A stretch of 36,941 nt of DNA, taken from a virus. Lineage: Duplodnaviria; Heunggongvirae; Uroviricota; Caudoviricetes. Position numbers and translations under genes: made by a program. Positions 2,059 to 23,523 of this stretch are shown piece after piece; the first letter of the stretch is position 1, and each line of letters begins with the position of its first letter. The DNA lies in IMG/VR virus record IMGVR_UViG_2563366846_000004. One strand, given 5' to 3'. Under the pieces are notes generated by a model, which was given only the letters and a program-made list of their open reading frames with translations, ran no database searches and was not told the origin of the DNA.

Positions 2059-4576
<2,518 letters not shown>

Positions 4577-9464: not shown

Positions 9465-9597
9465 TTTTTGGGACTCCTGGCTGATTAAGTATGTCGATAA
9501 GGCGTTTCCATCCGTCACGTAATTTACGGGTGATTCGTTCAAGTAAAGATTCGGAAGGGCAGCCAGCAACAGGCCACCCTGCAATGGCATATTGCAT
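9433..9597 (-). CDS. cIII: Regulatory protein cIII, 54 aa
   Basis: Hand translation of the minus strand gives [54 protein letters not shown], essentially lambda cIII; below the 60-aa cutoff of the ORF track. Confidence 0.8.
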   Translation of the reverse strand: MQYAIAGWPVAGCPSESLLERITRKLRDGWKRLIDILNQPGVPKNGSNNYGYPD

Positions 9598-9669
9598 GGT
9601 GTGCTCCTTATTTATACATAACGAAAAACGCCTCGAGTGAAGCGTAATTGGTATGCGGTAACGCCGCGC

Positions 9670-11941: not shown

Positions 11942-12694
11942 TTATGCTGCAAGTCTCTTAACCCAAGTCTCTCTTTTGGAGAATGGTAGAACTTGGCTTG
12001 ATTCATGGAAGAGTAAGGAGAGTTGTTGCATTTGATCACCAATTGCTTCGCTGTCTATAACAACAAATCTGTTGTTATACTCCTCACTTGAAGCTTTAAG
12101 ATCAATTAGTTTCCCAAGCAATGAGTAAGCACTATTCCAGCTTCCTCCGTGTTTCACGCTTGATGTAAAAACGTATTTAGGTATGTCGGTTTTTATTGTT
12201 ACAGGGACGGTAATTTGATGTCCACTCAAGCCATATACGTTTTCACGAAGAGAAAGTGCGTCTCTAAGCTCTGTGTGATATAGATAATCAATAACCATAC
12301 TTTCAAACTTTTCAGCTTGAACTGGCTGATACCAGTCTAACGACAAAGTTGATGCGAGTATACCAGCTCTAATTATGTTCGATGTAATCGCACCGACATC
12401 CTTTTCTGTTGCCCAAGCAATGATTTCTCCTCGAGCATTGAGTTCTGCGCCTTCTTTAAGCAGTAATTGTCGTATCTCATCAAGTCGTTTTTTGGTAAGC
12501 GAGATCCCTCTTGCCTCCATATTCATTAAGGCATCGCATCTGTCACTAACTAAATACCTACCATTGACTTCACGGATAAAGGCACCGACATGCTCTCCAT
12601 CATCACAGTAAGTGAATGGACTGATAATTCTCAAGGTCTTGCCTATTGGATGGCATTCGAAACCTAGTTGTGAGATCACTGTTGAGCACATCAT
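11942..12694 (-). CDS. Uncharacterized protein, 250 aa; second gene of the cI-linked two-gene operon in the rexAB position
   Basis: ATG overlaps the stop of the upstream gene (ATGA); AT-rich; no transmembrane segment or motif that I recognise; followed by a terminator. Confidence 0.6.
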   Translation of the reverse strand: MMCSTVISQLGFECHPIGKTLRIISPFTYCDDGEHVGAFIREVNGRYLVSDRCDALMNMEARGISLTKKRLDEIRQLLLKEGAELNARGEIIAWATEKDVGAITSNIIRAGILASTLSLDWYQPVQAEKFESMVIDYLYHTELRDALSLRENVYGLSGHQITVPVTIKTDIPKYVFTSSVKHGGSWNSAYSLLGKLIDLKASSEEYNNRFVVIDSEAIGDQMQQLSLLFHESSQVLPFSKRETWVKRLAA

Positions 12695-13248
12695 ATTCCA
12701 AACCCCATTTGCCCCGACTCATCTTCAAGCGGTAAAGGTATTCTCCCAGAGTAAGTTATGTTCAGATGTTTACAGAAGTAATTCCAATACCCTACCAGGT
12801 CATCTGGGTTTATGTCATCTTCGATTGGAAACGCTATTCTATCACTATAGTATCCAGCTTCTTCATAGTATACATGGTAGTGAGCACCGTAAATGATATC
12901 TTGGTACTTCGGATGATCGACCTTGTAACTATTCGTGTGTTTGTCAAAGTGATAGGTATCTACCGCGAAAACCCTCTTGTTATGATAGAAAGCAATAATA
13001 TTTATTTTAGGGTAAGAAATCGGGTCATCAGGTTCTGAATCCTGATCTGGTTTCCATTTCAGTTCAAACTTTAGCCCTTGTATAGGTATACAATCCTCAT
13101 CCAAGGGGATGATATGGGCTTGTAGCCACATATCAGAGCGACTTGGTTTCTGTTTCCATTTAACGCCAGAAAAGTTAACTATTTTTTTACAATAAAGTAC
13201 TTTATCAACTTCTACTTGGCTTGGCTGATAATCATCTATTTTTGCCAA
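12691..13248 (-). CDS. Uncharacterized acidic protein, about 185 aa; first gene of the cI-linked operon
   Basis: Starts 39 nt downstream of the cI stop on the same strand with no intervening hairpin; start codon appears to be TTG at 13248 with a weak upstream AGGGCGG, next in-frame ATG is 39 codons downstream; no recognisable motif. Confidence 0.55.
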   Translation of the reverse strand: MAKIDDYQPSQVEVDKVLYCKKIVNFSGVKWKQKPSRSDMWLQAHIIPLDEDCIPIQGLKFELKWKPDQDSEPDDPISYPKINIIAFYHNKRVFAVDTYHFDKHTNSYKVDHPKYQDIIYGAHYHVYYEEAGYYSDRIAFPIEDDINPDDLVGYWNYFCKHLNITYSGRIPLPLEDESGQMGFGI

Positions 13249-18753: not shown

Positions 18754-18890
18754 TGTTTGAGTTTAATATGGCAGAACTTCTTCGCCACCGCTGGGGGCGT
18801 CTGCGCTTATATCGTTTCCTCGGTTCTGTTTTGACCGATTACCGAATACTGAAGAATTACGCCAAAACCCTGACAGGAACAGGAGTATGA
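18750..18890 (+). CDS. Small protein, 46 aa, YlcG-like
   Basis: Hand translation [46 protein letters not shown]; overlaps the rusA stop; below the ORF-track cutoff. Confidence 0.4.
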
Positions 18891-18975
18891 AGTCAGAGAT
18901 AACAATCAACTAATACTGTTTTGTTGATTTTTGCTTGTAATTGGCGTTCTGGTCTGATTTTTGTGGAGTAAGTTG

Positions 18976-19359
18976 ATGCGTGATATTCAGATGGTTCTTG
19001 AGCGTTGGGGTGCGTGGGCGGCTAATAATCATGAAGATGTGACCTGGTCGTCCATTGCCGCCGGTTTTAAGGGATTAATTCCTTCAAAAGTAAAATCTCG
19101 CCCGCAATGTTGTGACGATGACGCGATGATCATTTGCGGGTGCATGGCCCGTCTGAAAAAGAACAACAGCGATTTACACGATTTATTAGTAGATTATTAT
19201 GTATGTGGTATGACATTCATGTCACTGGCAAGTAAGCATTGCTGCTCGGATGGTTATATCGGGAAAAGGTTACAGAAGGCTGAGGGCATAATTGAAGGGA
19301 TGTTAATGGCATTAGATATCCGGTTAGATATGGATATCGTTGCTAATAATTCTAATTGA
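18976..19359 (+). CDS. Q: Late-gene antiterminator Q, phage 82 / QuuD type, 127 aa
   Basis: Cys-rich zinc-binding region ([17 protein letters not shown]); position just upstream of the late region; start at ATG 18976. Confidence 0.8.
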
Positions 19360-19391
19360 TATGCAATTGTTTACTAAAAGTTATTAAAAAT

Positions 19392-19409
19392 GGGGCGTGG
19401 AAACGCCCC
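19392..19409 (-). terminator. Hairpin with a U-tract on the minus strand, candidate terminator for the porin transcript
   Basis: GGGGCG/CGCCCC stem, followed on the minus strand by ATTTTTAATAA. Confidence 0.4.
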
Positions 19410-19495
19410 CAAAATAAAGGGTAATATATAACAGAAGGTTTATATAGTAAGAAGCAAGGTAGTGCTTCTAAAGGAAGTGGCTTGAGGGCTCCACT

Positions 19496-19536
19496 TATAT
19501 GTTGCGGAGGCAAAGCCTCCCGCAACATATCTTTTT
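19496..19536 (+). terminator. Strong hairpin followed by CTTTTT on the plus strand, candidate terminator for Q-region readthrough
   Basis: About 14-bp stem (ATATGTTGCGGAGG / CCTCCCGCAACATAT) then TCTTTTT; lies between the convergent Q and porin genes. Confidence 0.5.
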
Positions 19537-19547
19537 CGTAAGTCAGA

Positions 19548-20630
19548 TTAGAACTGATAAACCAGACCTACAGCGACGATGTCGTCGGTATCAATACCAG
19601 CTGTTTTGGTAAACTTACTATCGTCAATTAAGTTGATTTTGTAATCAACAAAAGTGGACATGTTTTTATTAAAGTAGTAAGTAGCACCGACATCGACATA
19701 CTTGACTAAGTCTCGGTCACCATGAACACCAAGGTCTTTACCTTTTGACTGAAGGTAAGCAACAGATGGACGCAGACCGAAGTCAAACTGATATTGTGCT
19801 ACTGCTTCAAAGTTTTGTGCTTTGTTTGCAATATGGTTATTACCAAAAACGGTCATATTCTGAGTTTCAGAATATGTGGTAGCCAGATAGATATTGTTCG
19901 CATCATATTTCAGGCCTGCAGCCCATACTTCCGCATTTTTGCCGGAGGCATTGAATTTGCTCTTACCATAGGCGACCTGACCGTCAGTGCGATCTGATTT
20001 AGCATAGGTTGCACCCACGCCGAATCCTTCATACTCATAAGTAGTGGAGAAACCGAAACCATCACCATTGGCTTCAGTTACGTCAGTGCGGTCATTTTTA
20101 CCCTGATACTGAGCAGCAAAGTTCAGGCCATCGACCAGACCAAAGAAGTCGTTGTTACGATAAGTTGCAACACCAGTAGTGCGACCAGTCATGAACACAT
20201 CTGTTTGGGTCCAGGTATCACCACCGAATTCTGGCAGAACGTCAGTCCACGCACCGATGTCGTATGCTACACCGTAGTTACGGCCGTAATCGATTGAGCC
20301 GTAATCACCAAATTTCAGGCCTGCAAATGCAAGACGGGTTTTGTCTTTGGAAGAACCTTGAGATTCAGCACGGTTGCCTTTGAATTCATATTCCCACTGA
20401 CCGAAACCAGTCAGTTGATCGTTGATTTGGGTTTCACCTTTGAAGCCAAGACGGGCATAAGTAGTATCACCATCATCTGCATCATTAGAGGAGAAGTAGT
20501 GCTTGGCATTAACTTTCCCGTATAGATCCAGCTTGTTACTGTCTTTATTATAAATTTCAGCTGCCTGAGCAGACATCGCCATCAGTACTGATGCAGCTAC
20601 AGCAGAAATTGCCACTGTTAATTTTTTCAT
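19548..20630 (-). CDS. nmpC: Outer-membrane general porin, OmpC/NmpC/Lc family, about 360 aa precursor
   Basis: Signal peptide [23 protein letters not shown], beta-barrel porin sequence ending in a C-terminal Phe (VYQF); sits between Q and the lysis cassette on the opposite strand, as nmpC does in DLP12; AT-rich upstream region. Confidence 0.85.
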
Positions 20631-20949
20631 TGTACGCCCTTTTTTTGAACTATTATTAAAAAATGATGTCACTGCGCGATAAATATTCATCTAATCAATG
20701 TGATTATTTCAAGATGTAAGTTTTAGTTTCTCATTTAATTTGTGAAGTAGATCTCTATTTTTATCTGAACCTTTTCTATCTAATCCTATTCATGGCTCTT
20801 GTCTGAACAAAAATAAATCTATTAGCTAATTTATATTAATGGCACTTATTTATAAGTGCTCTATAATTCTTTAGCTTAATTTAAACAAACTAAAAATAAC
20901 ATCGGAAATTATTAACTGGTTATTTGTTGAAGTTTTCTTATGCATTTGT

Positions 20950-21035
20950 GGTGGTGTTTTGAACACTCGGTGGCATTCTCACAAATATCATTTAGTAGTT
21001 TACGTACGTAAAAAATTGGTTATGCTGTTAAGAGT
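20950..21035 (+). promoter_or_regulatory. Candidate late promoter region (pR'-like) with Q-utilisation site
   Basis: Possible -35 TTTACG (20999-21004) and -10 TATGCT (21021-21026) about 35 nt upstream of a terminator hairpin; weak match, position-based. Confidence 0.3.
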
Positions 21036-21058
21036 GGTTACTTCGTCACACAGCTTAA

Positions 21059-21089
21059 ACCCGCCGTCGAGCGGGTTTTTCCATTTTTT
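21059..21089 (+). terminator. Rho-independent terminator upstream of the holin gene (tR'-like)
   Basis: Stem ACCCGC/GCGGGT with 6-nt loop followed by TTTTTCCATTTTTT. Confidence 0.5.
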
Positions 21090-21218
21090 GAGTCTCGATA
21101 TTAGCTGATAACCCAATACCTGAGTTATTCACTGACTCCGAATCTGTTACGTTTCTGCCTTTATTGCGATACGTAGTATCCCCTTAATTTACACCCGCTT
21201 TGTCTGCGAGGTGGGGTT

Positions 21219-21434
21219 ATGAAATCCATGGATAAGTTAACAACGGGTGTCGCCTATGGTACCTCAGCAGGTAGTGCCGGGTACTGGTTTTTACAGTTGC
21301 TCGATAAAGTCACGCCCTCACAGTGGGCGGCAATAGGTGTGCTGGGTAGCCTGGTATTTGGCCTGCTGACGTACCTGACAAACCTTTATTTCAAGATTAA
21401 AGAAGATAAGCGCAAGGCTGCGAGAGGTGAATAA
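21219..21434 (+). CDS. S: Class II holin, phage 21 S-type, 71 aa, with dual-start MKSM motif
   Basis: 71 aa; two hydrophobic segments; N-terminal MKSM gives two possible starts (holin and antiholin); followed directly by the endolysin. Confidence 0.8.
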
Positions 21435-21931
21435 TGCCTCCATCATTACGAAAAGCCGTTGCTGCTGCTATTGGTGGCGGAGCAATTGCTATAGCATCAG
21501 TGTTAATCACTGGCCCAAGTGGTAACGATGGTCTGGAAGGTGTCAGCTACATACCATACAAAGATATTGTTGGTGTATGGACTGTATGTCACGGGCATAC
21601 AGGAAAAGACATCATGCTCGGTAAAACGTATACCAAAGCAGAATGCAAAGCCCTCCTGAATAAAGACCTTGCCACGGTCGCCAGACAAATTAACCCGTAC
21701 ATCAAAGTCGATATACCGGAAACAATGCGCGGCGCTCTTTACTCATTCGTTTACAACGTGGGTGCTGGCAATTTCAGAACATCGACGCTTCTTCGCAAAA
21801 TAAACCAGGGCGATATCAAAGGCGCATGTGATCAGCTACGTCGCTGGACATATGCTGGCGGTAAGCAATGGAAAGGTCTCATGACTCGTCGTGAGATTGA
21901 GCGTGAAATCTGTTTGTGGGGTCAGCAATGA
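21434..21931 (+). CDS. R: SAR endolysin (phage lysozyme with signal-anchor-release N-terminus), 165 aa
   Basis: Gly/Ala-rich hydrophobic N-terminus [18 protein letters not shown] followed by a lysozyme domain; start overlaps the holin stop. Confidence 0.85.
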
Positions 21932-22389
21932 ACAGAGTAACCGCGATTATCTCCGCTCTGGTTATCTGCATCATCGTCTGCCTGTCATGGGCTGTTAATC
22001 ATTACCGTGATAACGCCATTACCTACAAAGCCCAGCGCGACAAAAATGCCAGAGAACTGACGCTGGCGAACGCGGCAATTACTGACATACAGATGCGTCA
22101 GCGTGATGTTGCTGCGCTCGATGCAAAATACACGAAGGAGTTAGCTGATGCGAAAGCTGAAAATGATGCTCTGCGTGATGATGTTGCCGCTGGTCGTCGT
22201 CGGTTGCACATCAAAGCAGTCTGTCAGTCAGTGCGTGAAGCCACCACCGCCTCCGGCGTGGATAATGCAGCCTCCCCCCGACTGGCAGACACCGCTGAAC
22301 GGGATTATTTCACCCTCAGAGAGAGGCTGATCACTATGCAAAAACAACTGGAAGGAACCCAGAAGTATATTAATGAGCAGTGCAGATAG
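21928..22389 (+). CDS. Rz: Rz inner-membrane spanin, 153 aa
   Basis: N-terminal transmembrane segment then coiled-coil; ATGA overlap with the endolysin stop. Confidence 0.8.
22148..22330 (+). CDS. Rz1: Rz1 outer-membrane lipoprotein spanin, 60 aa, embedded in the +1 frame of Rz
   Basis: Lipoprotein signal with lipobox VVVGC, proline-rich mature part (PPPPP); lies entirely inside Rz. Confidence 0.75.
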
Positions 22390-22420: not shown

Positions 22421-22714
22421 TTATTGTGAGCAATACACACGCGCTTCCAGCGGAGTATAAATGCCTAAAGTAATAAAACCGAGCAATCCATTTACGAATG
22501 TTTGCTGGGTTTCTGTTTTAACAACATTTTCTGCGCCGCCACAAATTTTGGCTGCATCAACAGTTTTCTCCTGTCCAATTCCCGAAACGAAGAAGTGATG
22601 GGTGATGGTTTCCTTTGGTGTTACTGCTGTCGGTTTGTTTCCAACAGTAAACGTCTGTTGAGCACATCCTGTAATAAGCATTGCCAGAGCGGCAGAAAAC
22701 AACATTTTTTTCAT
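22421..22714 (-). CDS. bor: Bor serum-resistance lipoprotein, 97 aa
   Basis: Signal peptide with lipobox LITGC; 97 aa; opposite strand just after Rz as in lambda. Confidence 0.8.
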   Translation of the reverse strand: MKKMLFSAALAMLITGCAQQTFTVGNKPTAVTPKETITHHFFVSGIGQEKTVDAAKICGGAENVVKTETQQTFVNGLLGFITLGIYTPLEARVYCSQ

Positions 22715-23196: not shown

Positions 23197-23523
23197 ATGA
23201 AAAGACGCCTTTTACTACTTTTTCTGTTATCTGTCCTGGCAGTGGGATGCTCGCAGCAAAAAGCTGATGAGCCCCGGCAATTAGTGACGGTGTATCCACG
23301 ATATCCGGAATATGCTGCAGCAAATTATATCAAGGGGCTGGTTGAGGTTAAGTTCGATATTGGTGCTGATGGGACTGTGACACGGATCGTTTTTCTCCGC
23401 TCAGAGCCTCATAATTTGTTTCGTGATGAAGTGGTGAAGGCCATGGCGAAATGGCGATTTGAAAAGAATCGCCCCTGTCAGGGAGTGAAGAGACAATTTA
23501 TCTTTACGCCGTCACGTCCTTGA
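23197..23523 (+). CDS. Putative envelope lipoprotein, about 108 aa
   Basis: Signal peptide MKRRLLLLFLLSVLAVGC with lipobox; position matches the putative envelope protein gene after bor in lambda and DLP12. Confidence 0.5.
   Translation: MKRRLLLLFLLSVLAVGCSQQKADEPRQLVTVYPRYPEYAAANYIKGLVEVKFDIGADGTVTRIVFLRSEPHNLFRDEVVKAMAKWRFEKNRPCQGVKRQFIFTPSRP

Follow-up and report, generated by a model that had tools for sequence, protein, structure and literature searches.

We found that the porin gene in the window (the whole 36,941-nucleotide stretch of DNA that was analysed) belongs, with a probability of roughly 85%, to an NmpC/Lc lysogenic-conversion porin cassette carried by a lambda-like prophage in an Escherichia coli chromosome of the UTI89/ST95 type. 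The cassette is very probably a foreign, AT-rich insert of ~1.65 kb (about 19336 to 20995) lying between the Q gene and the promoter that Q targets, pR'. As a cassette it is already known and ordinary, an intact copy of the NmpC/Lc porin gene: knowledge of nmpC and lc goes back to the 1970s and 1980s and that of the small RNA IpeX to 2006, and the porin gene itself adds nothing new. The slot that it occupies differs from that of stx, as it would be insulated from Q-dependent late transcription and appears to be built for expression in the lysogen, and the late promoter of DLP12-type prophages should be sought 1.6 kb beyond Q and shortly before the holin gene.

The window is 100% identical to the chromosome of E. 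coli UTI89 and to those of other ST95 strains. The DNA block around the porin is likewise identical (100%) in many ExPEC/ST95 genomes, in which quuD, a porin and essD are annotated. At a query coverage of at least 80%, the porin block was present in 2,466 of the 5,426 complete E. coli genomes (~45%), as well as in 36 phage records. Relatives of the module comprise K-12 DLP12 (with IS5 in nmpC), phage 434B, lc of phage PA-2 and these 36 phage records, and the flanks are shared with known NmpC/Lc cassettes at ~88–93% identity or better. The gene set of the prophage is complete from integrase to tail fibre, and its integration site adjoins icd. Its J protein is 83% identical overall to J of phage 434B, with a diverged C-terminal receptor-binding part. 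The features of the locus are listed in Table 1.

Table 1 Features of the porin cassette and of the flanking late-control and lysis regions.
Feature	Position	Strand	Basis or detail
Late-gene antiterminator Q, QuuD type, 127 aa	18976..19359	+	Pfam; RefSeq quuD
Predicted intrinsic terminator of the porin transcript (hairpin 1)	19386..19409	-	GGGGCGTTTCCACGCCCC then ATTTTT
Porin 3' UTR, region of the sRNA IpeX (approximate ends)	19386..19552	-	Identity, fold, anatomy
Long hairpin with U-tract (hairpin 2); probable terminator for Q read-through	19497..19536	+	Fold, CTTTTT; predicted function
Porin CDS, NmpC/Lc allele, 360 aa, intact	19548..20630	-	Pfam, structure alignment, identity to Lc/NmpC
Porin signal peptide, 23 aa	20562-20630	-	Alignment to mature porins
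Predicted RybB pairing site in porin mRNA, -9 to +21 relative to AUG	20610..20639	-	RNAduplex
AT-rich porin upstream/control region, 27.7% GC	20631..20995	-	GC scan; CRP-like site 20739-20759
Late promoter pR'	20999..21033	+	-35 TTTACG 20999-21004; -10 TATGCT 21021-21026; probable start A 21033
Promoter-proximal terminator hairpin of the late operon (tR'-like)	21057..21089	+	AAACCCGCCGTCGAGCGGGTTT then TTCCATTTTTT
Lysis cassette	21219..22389	+	Pfam Phage_holin_2_1, Phage_lysozyme, Phage_lysis; RefSeq essD, rrrD, rzpD
S21-type holin	21219-21434	+	Lysis cassette
SAR-type lysozyme	21434-21931	+	Lysis cassette; SAR label from 434B record
Rz	21928-22389	+	Lysis cassette; spanin label from 434B record
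Rz1	22148-22330	+	Lysis cassette; spanin label from 434B record

The initial annotation of this DNA had described a complete NmpC/Lc-family porin with a signal peptide, encoded on the strand opposite the late genes between Q and the holin gene, and our analysis bears this out. The minus-strand open reading frame spans 19548..20690, and the annotated start, an ATG at 20630, gives a protein of 360 residues. The protein covers the full Pfam Porin_1 model (PF00267; 1–337 of 337, E = 1.9e-151, 504.7 bits against a cutoff of 23.7), which assigns it to the general bacterial porins of the OmpC/OmpF/PhoE family. Residues 24–360 align end to end with mature residues 1–343 of a solved OmpC (2xe2; E = 5.8e-137), and alignment to OmpC structures needs several indels. 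Following a signal peptide of 23 residues, the length that is also annotated in the Lc record, the mature protein would begin with AEIYNKD; it ends with VYQF. Identity to Lc of PA-2 and to K-12 NmpC (rejoined across IS5) is 91.9% in each case over 360 aligned residues, and the differences are confined to five short patches. A check of whether the gene is intact had been proposed, and we found no IS element, frameshift or stop codon in it; in all likelihood the gene encodes an intact general-diffusion porin, putatively a 16-stranded beta-barrel trimer with pore activity. A PADLOC search returned no match for the porin. The forward primer of a published nmpC PCR for AIEC matches 20567-20586 exactly, and no match to the reverse primer was found in the searched DNA with up to 3 mismatches allowed, which means that the assay is directed at another allele.

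The cassette is shared with two well-known relatives. DLP12 (qsr') of K-12 has the same cassette in the same order, with quuD, the IpeX region, nmpC on the opposite strand, an AT-rich region, pR' and essD-rrrD-rzpD-borD; its pR' segment is identical to that of the window. In DLP12, however, IS5 follows codon 346 of nmpC and the gene is dead, whereas the copy in the window is intact and its protein differs by 8%, in the five short patches. DLP12 is also a prophage remnant, in contrast to the complete prophage found here next to icd. Phage PA-2, a functional converting phage, carries the same gene and flanks (porin Lc or 'protein 2'; J02580), but its lc is a different allele, with the differences again in the five short patches. 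The PA-2 record leaves the holin unannotated, shows the lysozyme only as ORF2 and has a second 'CRP site' that coincides with +1 to +21 of pR'. The initial annotation had placed the porin in the usual cargo slot, like stx, nmpC or lc. For nmpC and lc this can be put more strongly, as the cassette is the same one and the porin gene an allele rather than a likeness; the comparison with stx fails on position, the porin being upstream of pR'.

This position emerges from the way in which homology to Stx phages is interrupted. Q matches Pfam Phage_antitermQ (E = 7.7e-54), shares 81% identity over 120 aa with Q of the Stx2 phage Sp5 and is a distant relative of Q21, for which a structure has been solved (E = 4e-8). 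Homology to Sp5 Q stops at about residue 120 (about 19335), and the final 7 codons of Q are specific to the cassette. A second block of homology covers 20996-21080 and is 78% identical over 85 bp to the pR' segment of Sp5/VT2-Sakai; the VT2-Sakai counterpart is annotated as late promoter, qut and terminator. The Q block and the pR' block are 86 bp apart in Sp5 and 1,687 bp apart here. From the Q stop (19359) to the -35 element of pR' (20999) we counted 1,639 bp, whereas the Sp5 promoter and Q stop overlap; at this locus, pR' was not found immediately 3' of Q or overlapping it. This puts the porin cassette after Q and before pR', so that the late transcript does not include it. With 20700-21230 as the query, 360 phage records matched in part, mostly Stx phages at the pR' segment, and most of the query was covered in 36 phage records only.

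The pR' segment is invariant across the window, PA-2 and K-12, and pR' fits the sigma-70 consensus at just 8 of 12 positions. In Sp5, the pR' start has been mapped by dRNA-seq and gives a 258-nt RNA (PMC7547250), a length that fits a start at the A 7 nt after the -10 element and an end at the last U of the second terminator. By homology, transcription from pR' of the window would start at 21033. The tR'-like hairpin (dG -12 kcal/mol, z = -2.2) is homologous to the first terminator after VT2-Sakai pR', and no other plus-strand terminator candidate was found from pR' to the holin gene. In Sp5, polymerase passes the counterpart of the 21057-21078 hairpin with a frequency sufficient for the 258-nt RNA to form (PMC7547250), so the efficiency of 21057-21089 as the sole tR' here is uncertain. 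Control of the DLP12 lysis cassette by Q, with terminator read-through that depends on Q, has been reported, in work cited in PMC7918800. The region delimited by the initial annotation ended at 21089; the late promoter and hairpin within it (20999-21089) had gone unrecognised.

Between Q and the porin, two hairpins with U-tracts on opposite strands had been noted at 19392-19409 and 19496-19536, and we found both at or near these positions. The stem of hairpin 1 (19392-19409) has 7 bp, 6 of which are G-C, with a dG of -13.8 kcal/mol (z = -2.8); its T-run (19390-19386) is present on the minus strand only. The stem is invariant and the loop bases alone vary in K-12, PA-2, ev099 and mEp332. At 139 nt past the porin stop codon and 33 nt away from that of Q, hairpin 1 very likely terminates the porin transcript, as judged from its fold and conservation. 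Hairpin 2 spans 19497-19530, with CTTTTT running on to 19536; it has 15–16 bp and a plus-strand dG of -21.9 kcal/mol (z = -5.8), and none of 200 shuffles folded as well. The minus strand folds here too (dG -22.5 kcal/mol, z = -4.9), but the T-run is on the plus strand only. A sole stem difference among the relatives leaves the helix formable in another register, as seen by eye. Hairpin 2 is situated inside the porin 3' UTR, where it probably faces Q as a plus-strand terminator and probably also forms a stem-loop in the minus-strand RNA. Terminator-like sites in 18800-21500 numbered 3 against 2.4 expected from shuffles, which is not above chance, so the evidence lies in the strength of the individual hairpins and in their conservation. 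The two hairpins are not the adjacent terminators of the two genes but are crossed: the U-tract that would end the transcript of either gene belongs to the hairpin farther from that gene.

The porin 3' UTR matches the region of the known sRNA IpeX, which we take to be located directly 3' of the phage porin stop on the same strand. The Q–porin spacer with this 3' UTR is 93% identical to its counterparts in DLP12 and PA-2, and the spacer (193 bp) is confined to porin-carrying phages (36 of 36 records). The minus-strand RNA of the region, 176 nt in length, folds at -53.6 kcal/mol (z = -5.6), and substitutions among the relatives fall in loops or bulges or keep the pairing. From the porin stop codon to the U-tract there are about 163 nt, which fits the 167 nt reported for IpeX, an RNA processed from the phage porin transcript (PMC12197685), and would place the 3' end at the minus-strand terminator; the ends given here follow from the reported length and this anatomy. 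IpeX lowers OmpC and OmpF (PMC5069750, PMC7177473; see also PMC10690425), a function that the RNA of the window may share. Searched at gathering thresholds, the region had no Rfam match; relaxing the cutoff to E <= 1 gave two matches, sau-19 and Trp_leader, which we rejected as being at chance level and driven in both cases by the terminator hairpins.

Upstream of the porin, the initial annotation had pointed to an AT-rich control region at 20640-21060. GC content is indeed lowest here, at 27.7% for 20631-20995 compared with 49.4% for the window, and this segment includes the lowest-GC 365-bp stretch of all 36.9 kb; the part from about 20996, however, is the late promoter rather than control DNA of the porin. 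A CRP site annotated in the PA-2 record (J02580) aligns to 20739-20759. A consensus scan of the minus strand upstream of the porin found no sigma-70-like promoter. By eye, 20701-20720 on the minus strand resembles what we take to be the C1 OmpR box of ompC (14 of 20 positions).

Three other accounts of the locus were weighed against the reading of an NmpC/Lc cassette inserted between Q and pR'. The first treats the porin as cargo in an stx-like slot, downstream of a late promoter adjacent to Q, with the hairpins as plain adjacent terminators of Q and the porin. The gross order of Q, cargo and holin is that of the Stx phages (Sp5, 933W and VT2-Sakai), which share the Q family (81% identity) and a homologous pR' and carry their cargo between Q and the lysis genes; moreover, pR' of lambda and of Sp5 comes directly after the end of Q or overlaps it. 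But the Q–porin spacer travels only with the porin and is homologous to no pR' region, the segment that does match pR' is found at 20996-21080, and the U-tracts are each on the hairpin distal to the gene to be terminated. For the first two of these reasons we also rejected a pR'/tR' in the Q–porin spacer, with the 19497-19536 hairpin as tR'. In Stx phages, stx follows pR'/tR' on the late strand and depends on Q (PMC7547250), whereas the porin precedes pR', is encoded on the other strand and has what would be its own promoter and terminator; it was not found downstream of pR'/tR' or on the late strand. An stx-like slot is therefore very improbable.

The RefSeq label raises the question of whether the porin is the host ompC gene. 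PGAP names the prophage porin 'ompC: porin OmpC', and the protein passes the NCBIfam OmpC model (521 bits against a cutoff of 484), although this is a subfamily model and not an equivalog. Genomic context refutes the identity: the gene is inside a prophage, between Q and the holin gene, and is 91.9% identical to Lc/NmpC but separated from OmpC structures by several indels, which leaves this account with a negligible chance of being correct. The label can nevertheless mislead surveys of porins and of antibiotic permeability. A gene that is intact yet effectively silent in its host, a passenger with little outer-membrane effect as nmpC is in laboratory strains, is a more serious alternative, and we consider it unlikely. 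The extreme AT-richness of the upstream DNA is of the kind usually seen with xenogeneic silencing, no promoter turned up in the consensus scan, and IS5 in K-12 and IS1 in E. coli B inactivate the gene without obvious cost. On the other side, the porin is annotated as WP_000737271.1 in both UTI89 and UPEC_U013, and the DNA block is unchanged in many ExPEC genomes. ExPEC genes named nmpC are expressed and regulated by temperature and urine, and NmpC protein has been detected in CFT073, with higher levels in urine and at 37 °C, and in outer-membrane preparations of AIEC (PMC2680622, PMC12890032, PMC9409007), all of which are matched to the present gene by name only.

On the preferred reading of an insulated NmpC/Lc cassette, a promoter of the cassette's own, within the AT-rich DNA and expected to work in the lysogen, would drive leftward transcription of the porin. 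This RNA would run through the structured 163-nt 3' UTR and end at the minus-strand terminator 33 bp before Q. The porin would join the outer membrane while IpeX lowers OmpC and OmpF, so that, following the literature, the porin set of the lysogen would be altered. The long hairpin by the porin stop most likely halts unmodified polymerases leaving Q and would spare the porin gene antisense entry. Late transcription would start at pR' (about 21033), 1.64 kb downstream of Q, and stop at the 21057-21089 hairpin, with Q-modified polymerase going on into the holin, endolysin and spanin genes. With a late start beyond the cassette, the porin would neither belong to the late RNA made from pR' nor be antisense to it; in this it differs from stx.

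As the terminators are crossed, the 3' end of a Q transcript ending at about 19536 would be fully complementary to the RNA of the IpeX region and to the end of the porin mRNA (19386-19552). We regard it as a speculative and rather doubtful extension that the early right operon could, on induction, neutralise IpeX and porin mRNA (for example through duplex formation and RNase III), with N-modified transcripts running antisense through the whole porin gene; that, conversely, porin/IpeX transcription in the lysogen could damp stray Q; or that a 48–57-nt pR' leader RNA (21033 to about 21085) might accumulate constitutively in lysogens as an abundant small RNA, in the way that StxS does in Stx phages. 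If the antisense reading were true, the lysis–lysogeny state would be coupled to the porin set of the host.

OmpD of Salmonella is encoded by a chromosomal gene and is not known as prophage cargo; several phage records give the porin this label. Around the porin start codon, RNAduplex predicts pairing of the mRNA with RybB at -24.0 kcal/mol, equalled by 1 of 500 shuffles, with a predicted 7-nt seed of CAGUGGC against GCCACUG at the RybB 5' end. A published account describes nmpC as an ompD-like gene and reports its mRNA as a RybB target (PMC3333887).

We identified the feature as the NmpC/Lc porin cassette with its IpeX region, carried here as an intact allele, and every element of it is already known. 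The initial annotation was right in its observation as a whole and its interpretation was borne out in part. The K-12 cryptic prophage DLP12 has the same block between quuD and essD, with an nmpC split by IS5, unlike the intact porin of the window; phage 434B has it with IS5 as in DLP12, and the 1986 PA-2 record (J02580) has it carrying lc. Overall, the block is present in 36 phage records (including ev017, PhiR57_1, 2G7b, 4A7 and mEp332), and at least 80% of window 19380-21100 is covered in 2,466 of the 5,426 complete E. coli genomes. In K-12 derivatives an IS5 breaks the block, and in E. coli B an IS1 does.

The porin is complete and belongs to the OmpC/NmpC/Lc family, as had been proposed. 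It matched Pfam Porin_1 across the entire model (E = 1.9e-151), and from the mature N-terminus AEIYNKD through the C-terminal Phe it aligned end to end with the solved structures of OmpC, OmpK36, PhoE and OmpF (best E = 5.8e-137). The RefSeq start is also supported by the match to the Lc signal peptide. A check for disruption, suggested earlier because K-12 nmpC carries an insertion, found the gene sequence free of IS elements, frameshifts and internal stops. RefSeq names the gene 'ompC' on the basis of an NCBIfam subfamily model (521 bits versus a cutoff of 484); as the gene sits inside a prophage, this label does not denote orthology. With the IS5 gap in K-12 NmpC closed, that protein and Lc are each 91.9% identical to the porin of the window; the differences, 29 substitutions and 5 indel positions, all fall in five short patches (residues ~182-190, 219-232, 268-272, 308-311 and 340-350). 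Their places in the alignment with OmpC suggest that the patches are external loops L4 to L8, and such clustering, with the loops placed by inference, is the pattern expected from diversifying change in surface loops.

Coordinates of the porin cassette, the late promoter and other features of the prophage
Feature	Position	Strand	Remarks
Lambda_thermo (cIII thermoregulator RNA element)	9552-9610	-	Rfam 88.5 bits versus gathering score 50
Two genes beside the cI-like repressor	11942-12694 and 12691-13248	-	one DUF1828 protein, the other hypothetical
Minus-strand hairpin	19392-19409	-	7 bp, 6 G-C; T-run after it on the minus strand only
Plus-strand hairpin	19497-19530	+	15-16 bp, dG -21.9 kcal/mol, z = -5.8; CTTTTT after it on the plus strand only
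Porin ORF	20690 to 19548	-	RefSeq start ATG at 20630, giving 360 aa
Palindrome GCACTTAT-TT-ATAAGTGC	20843-20860	+	perfect, 8-bp arms, within AT-rich region
pR' -35, TTTACG	20999-21004	+	alignment with VT2-Sakai; 16-nt spacer to -10
pR' -10, TATGCT	21021-21026	+	alignment with VT2-Sakai
Initial transcribed sequence AGAGTGGTTAC	after -10	+	conserved in VT2-Sakai alignment
Hairpin AAACCCGCCGTCGAGCGGGTTT with T-run	21057-21089	+	VT2-Sakai alignment
Bor-family lipoprotein	22421-22714	-	directly past spanin genes, opposite strand; RefSeq, increased serum survival protein Iss
Small ORF	23197-23523	+	between bor/iss and terminase genes; lipoprotein-like N-terminus

With 20700-21230 as query, 360 phage records gave a partial match; these were mostly Stx phages, which matched only at ~20996-21080. 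In VT2-Sakai, the aligned segment bears the annotations 'putative late promoter', 'putative Q-utilization' and 'terminator', and lies right at the end of Q. For Sp5, Sy et al. located the pR' start with dRNA-seq and used Term-seq to place the 3' end of a 258-nt RNA (PMC7547250). Counting 257 nt from the A that lies 7 nt past the -10 in the Sakai sequence leads to the last T of the second terminator; this confirms the annotated promoter as the mapped pR', with an inferred coordinate offset between genome versions, a single value of which suits both ends. Q is 81% identical to Sp5 Q over 120 residues and belongs to Pfam PF06530, the family that also holds the structurally characterised Q21; work cited in PMC7918800 reports that Q controls the lysis cassette of DLP12.

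BLAST of Sp5 against the window returned exactly two blocks, Q (to 19308 in DNA, ~19335 in protein) and pR' (from 20996), separated by 86 bp in Sp5 and by 1687 bp in the window. Together with the pR' homology, this places the cassette (~19336 to 20995) as an insertion between Q and pR', in which it replaces the C-terminal tail of Q (7 residues past the break versus 24). The pR' segment is identical in the window, PA-2 and K-12, and the neighbouring AT-rich DNA is variable. The porin does lie between Q and the holin gene, as first annotated, but this is not the slot used by stx, since the pR' homologue is downstream of it at 20996-21080: stx is located downstream of pR'/tR' on the late strand, whereas the porin cargo is upstream of pR', a detail that may be less widely appreciated. 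The second 'CRP site' of PA-2 aligns with pR' +1 to +21 (21033-21053), and by this alignment is probably a piece of the late-promoter unit.

Shigella phage SfII (1767-4308 of its locus) has a PF06530-family Q, two reverse-strand genes, then a segment resembling pR', with 73.5% identity to window 21003-21213, and finally the holin; the two genes had no convincing Pfam match. SfII thus shares the layout of the window with different cargo, which suggests that the gap between Q and pR' may be a recurrent slot for reverse-oriented cargo.

The spacer between Q and the porin (193 bp, 93% identity to DLP12) was found among phage records only in the 36 with the porin, and is therefore part of the cassette and not of the Q/late-promoter unit. 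Both hairpins with T-runs on opposite strands that had been described there are present. Terminator-like sites in the region were no more numerous than expected by chance (3 versus 2.4), so it is the strength of each hairpin and its conservation that argue for terminators. The porin stop is followed after 139 nt by the minus-strand terminator (19409-19392), whose distance to the Q stop is 33 nt. The Q stop is followed after 137 nt by the plus-strand terminator (19497-19536), which lies within the porin 3' UTR, 12 nt from the stop of that gene. By these distances and the anatomy of the 3' UTR the two are 'crossed', which may likewise be little appreciated. The minus-strand RNA that follows the porin stop codon, terminator included, folds at -53.6 kcal/mol (z = -5.6) into four hairpins, the last being the terminator. 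When five variants were aligned (window, K-12, PA-2, ev099 and mEp332), substitutions fell in loops or bulges or preserved pairing (for example, A-U to G-U). PMC12197685, PMC5069750, PMC10690425 and PMC7177473 describe IpeX as a 167-nt RNA of DLP12 and PA-2 that lowers OmpC and OmpF; it is said to arise by processing of the phage porin transcript (PMC12197685). The stop codon and U-tract of the window are ~163 nt apart, which fits an IpeX with inferred ends at ~19552 and 19386.

An AT-rich region upstream of the porin is real (20631-20995, 27.7% GC, holding the lowest-GC 365-bp stretch of the window), but the extent first assigned to it, 20640-21060, runs into the pR' homology that begins at 20996. 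The annotated CRP-type site of PA-2 aligns to 20739-20759. A scan upstream of the porin found no consensus sigma-70 promoter on the minus strand, a result that would suit a promoter dependent on an activator and prone to silencing. The palindrome in this region overlaps a plus-strand promoter-like site (ATGGCA-17-TATAAT, 20839-20867); it is imperfect in PA-2 and K-12 and hence probably not functional. In E. coli LY180 (3501-3825 of its locus), we observed an orphan porin upstream region with the first ~40 nt of the coding sequence, ~84% identical to window 20590-20913. It lacks the porin gene, and its neighbours are emrE-ybcL-ybcM, within a decayed remnant of DLP12 type near fliE; several other genomes have similar orphans.

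In a lysogen, leftward transcription of the cassette would begin at a promoter within the AT-rich region, with the porin translated from this mRNA and IpeX derived from its 3' UTR; the net outcome would be an altered porin set, with OmpC and OmpF lowered by IpeX as in the literature. A RybB site is predicted at the mRNA 5' end (-9 to +21; dG -24.0 kcal/mol, 1/500 shuffles as good), in agreement with the reported targeting of nmpC mRNA by RybB (PMC3333887). Late transcription would start at ~21033 and, unless Q acts, stop at the hairpin past pR', yielding a 48-57-nt leader RNA. The plus-strand hairpin at 19497-19536 most likely blocks unmodified polymerases leaving Q from antisense entry into the porin gene, and would be read through by N-modified polymerases. 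Genes named nmpC in ExPEC, whose alleles may differ from that of the window, are expressed: NmpC (c1560) of CFT073 was up 2- to 3.3-fold in urine (PMC2680622), both CFT073 nmpC genes were strongly favoured at 37 C in RNA and protein (PMC12890032), and AIEC outer-membrane preparations contained NmpC (PMC9409007).

The region of the initial annotation shows 100% identity to the chromosomes of E. coli UTI89, IHE3034, UM146, APEC O18 and many other ExPEC strains. In UTI89 (window position = UTI89 position - 1,236,994), the counterpart of the window runs from hflD through icd into a lambda-like prophage adjoining icd, and ends in the tape-measure gene. The prophage order is int, xis, exo-bet-gam, kil, cIII, cI-like repressor, cro, cII, O, P, ren, nin genes, rusA, quuD (Q), porin, essD, rrrD, rzpD, iss/bor, terminase, and head and tail genes as far as the tape measure. 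Lambda_thermo was the sole Rfam match above gathering within the window. The two genes beside the repressor are hits to PDC-M24, a candidate defence system in PADLOC (B, E = 4.7e-10; A, E = 4.8e-4, weak); in lambda, rexAB occupies the equivalent place adjoining cI. The small ORF past bor/iss has a TonB C-terminal domain (TIGR01352, 47 bits versus a cutoff of 27) and is probably a further cargo gene. At the otherwise identical locus of E. coli UPEC_U013, an IS1 lies at ~window 21100, past the pR' hairpin and ahead of the holin gene; lysis genes and late promoter are thereby separated, and the porin is unaffected.
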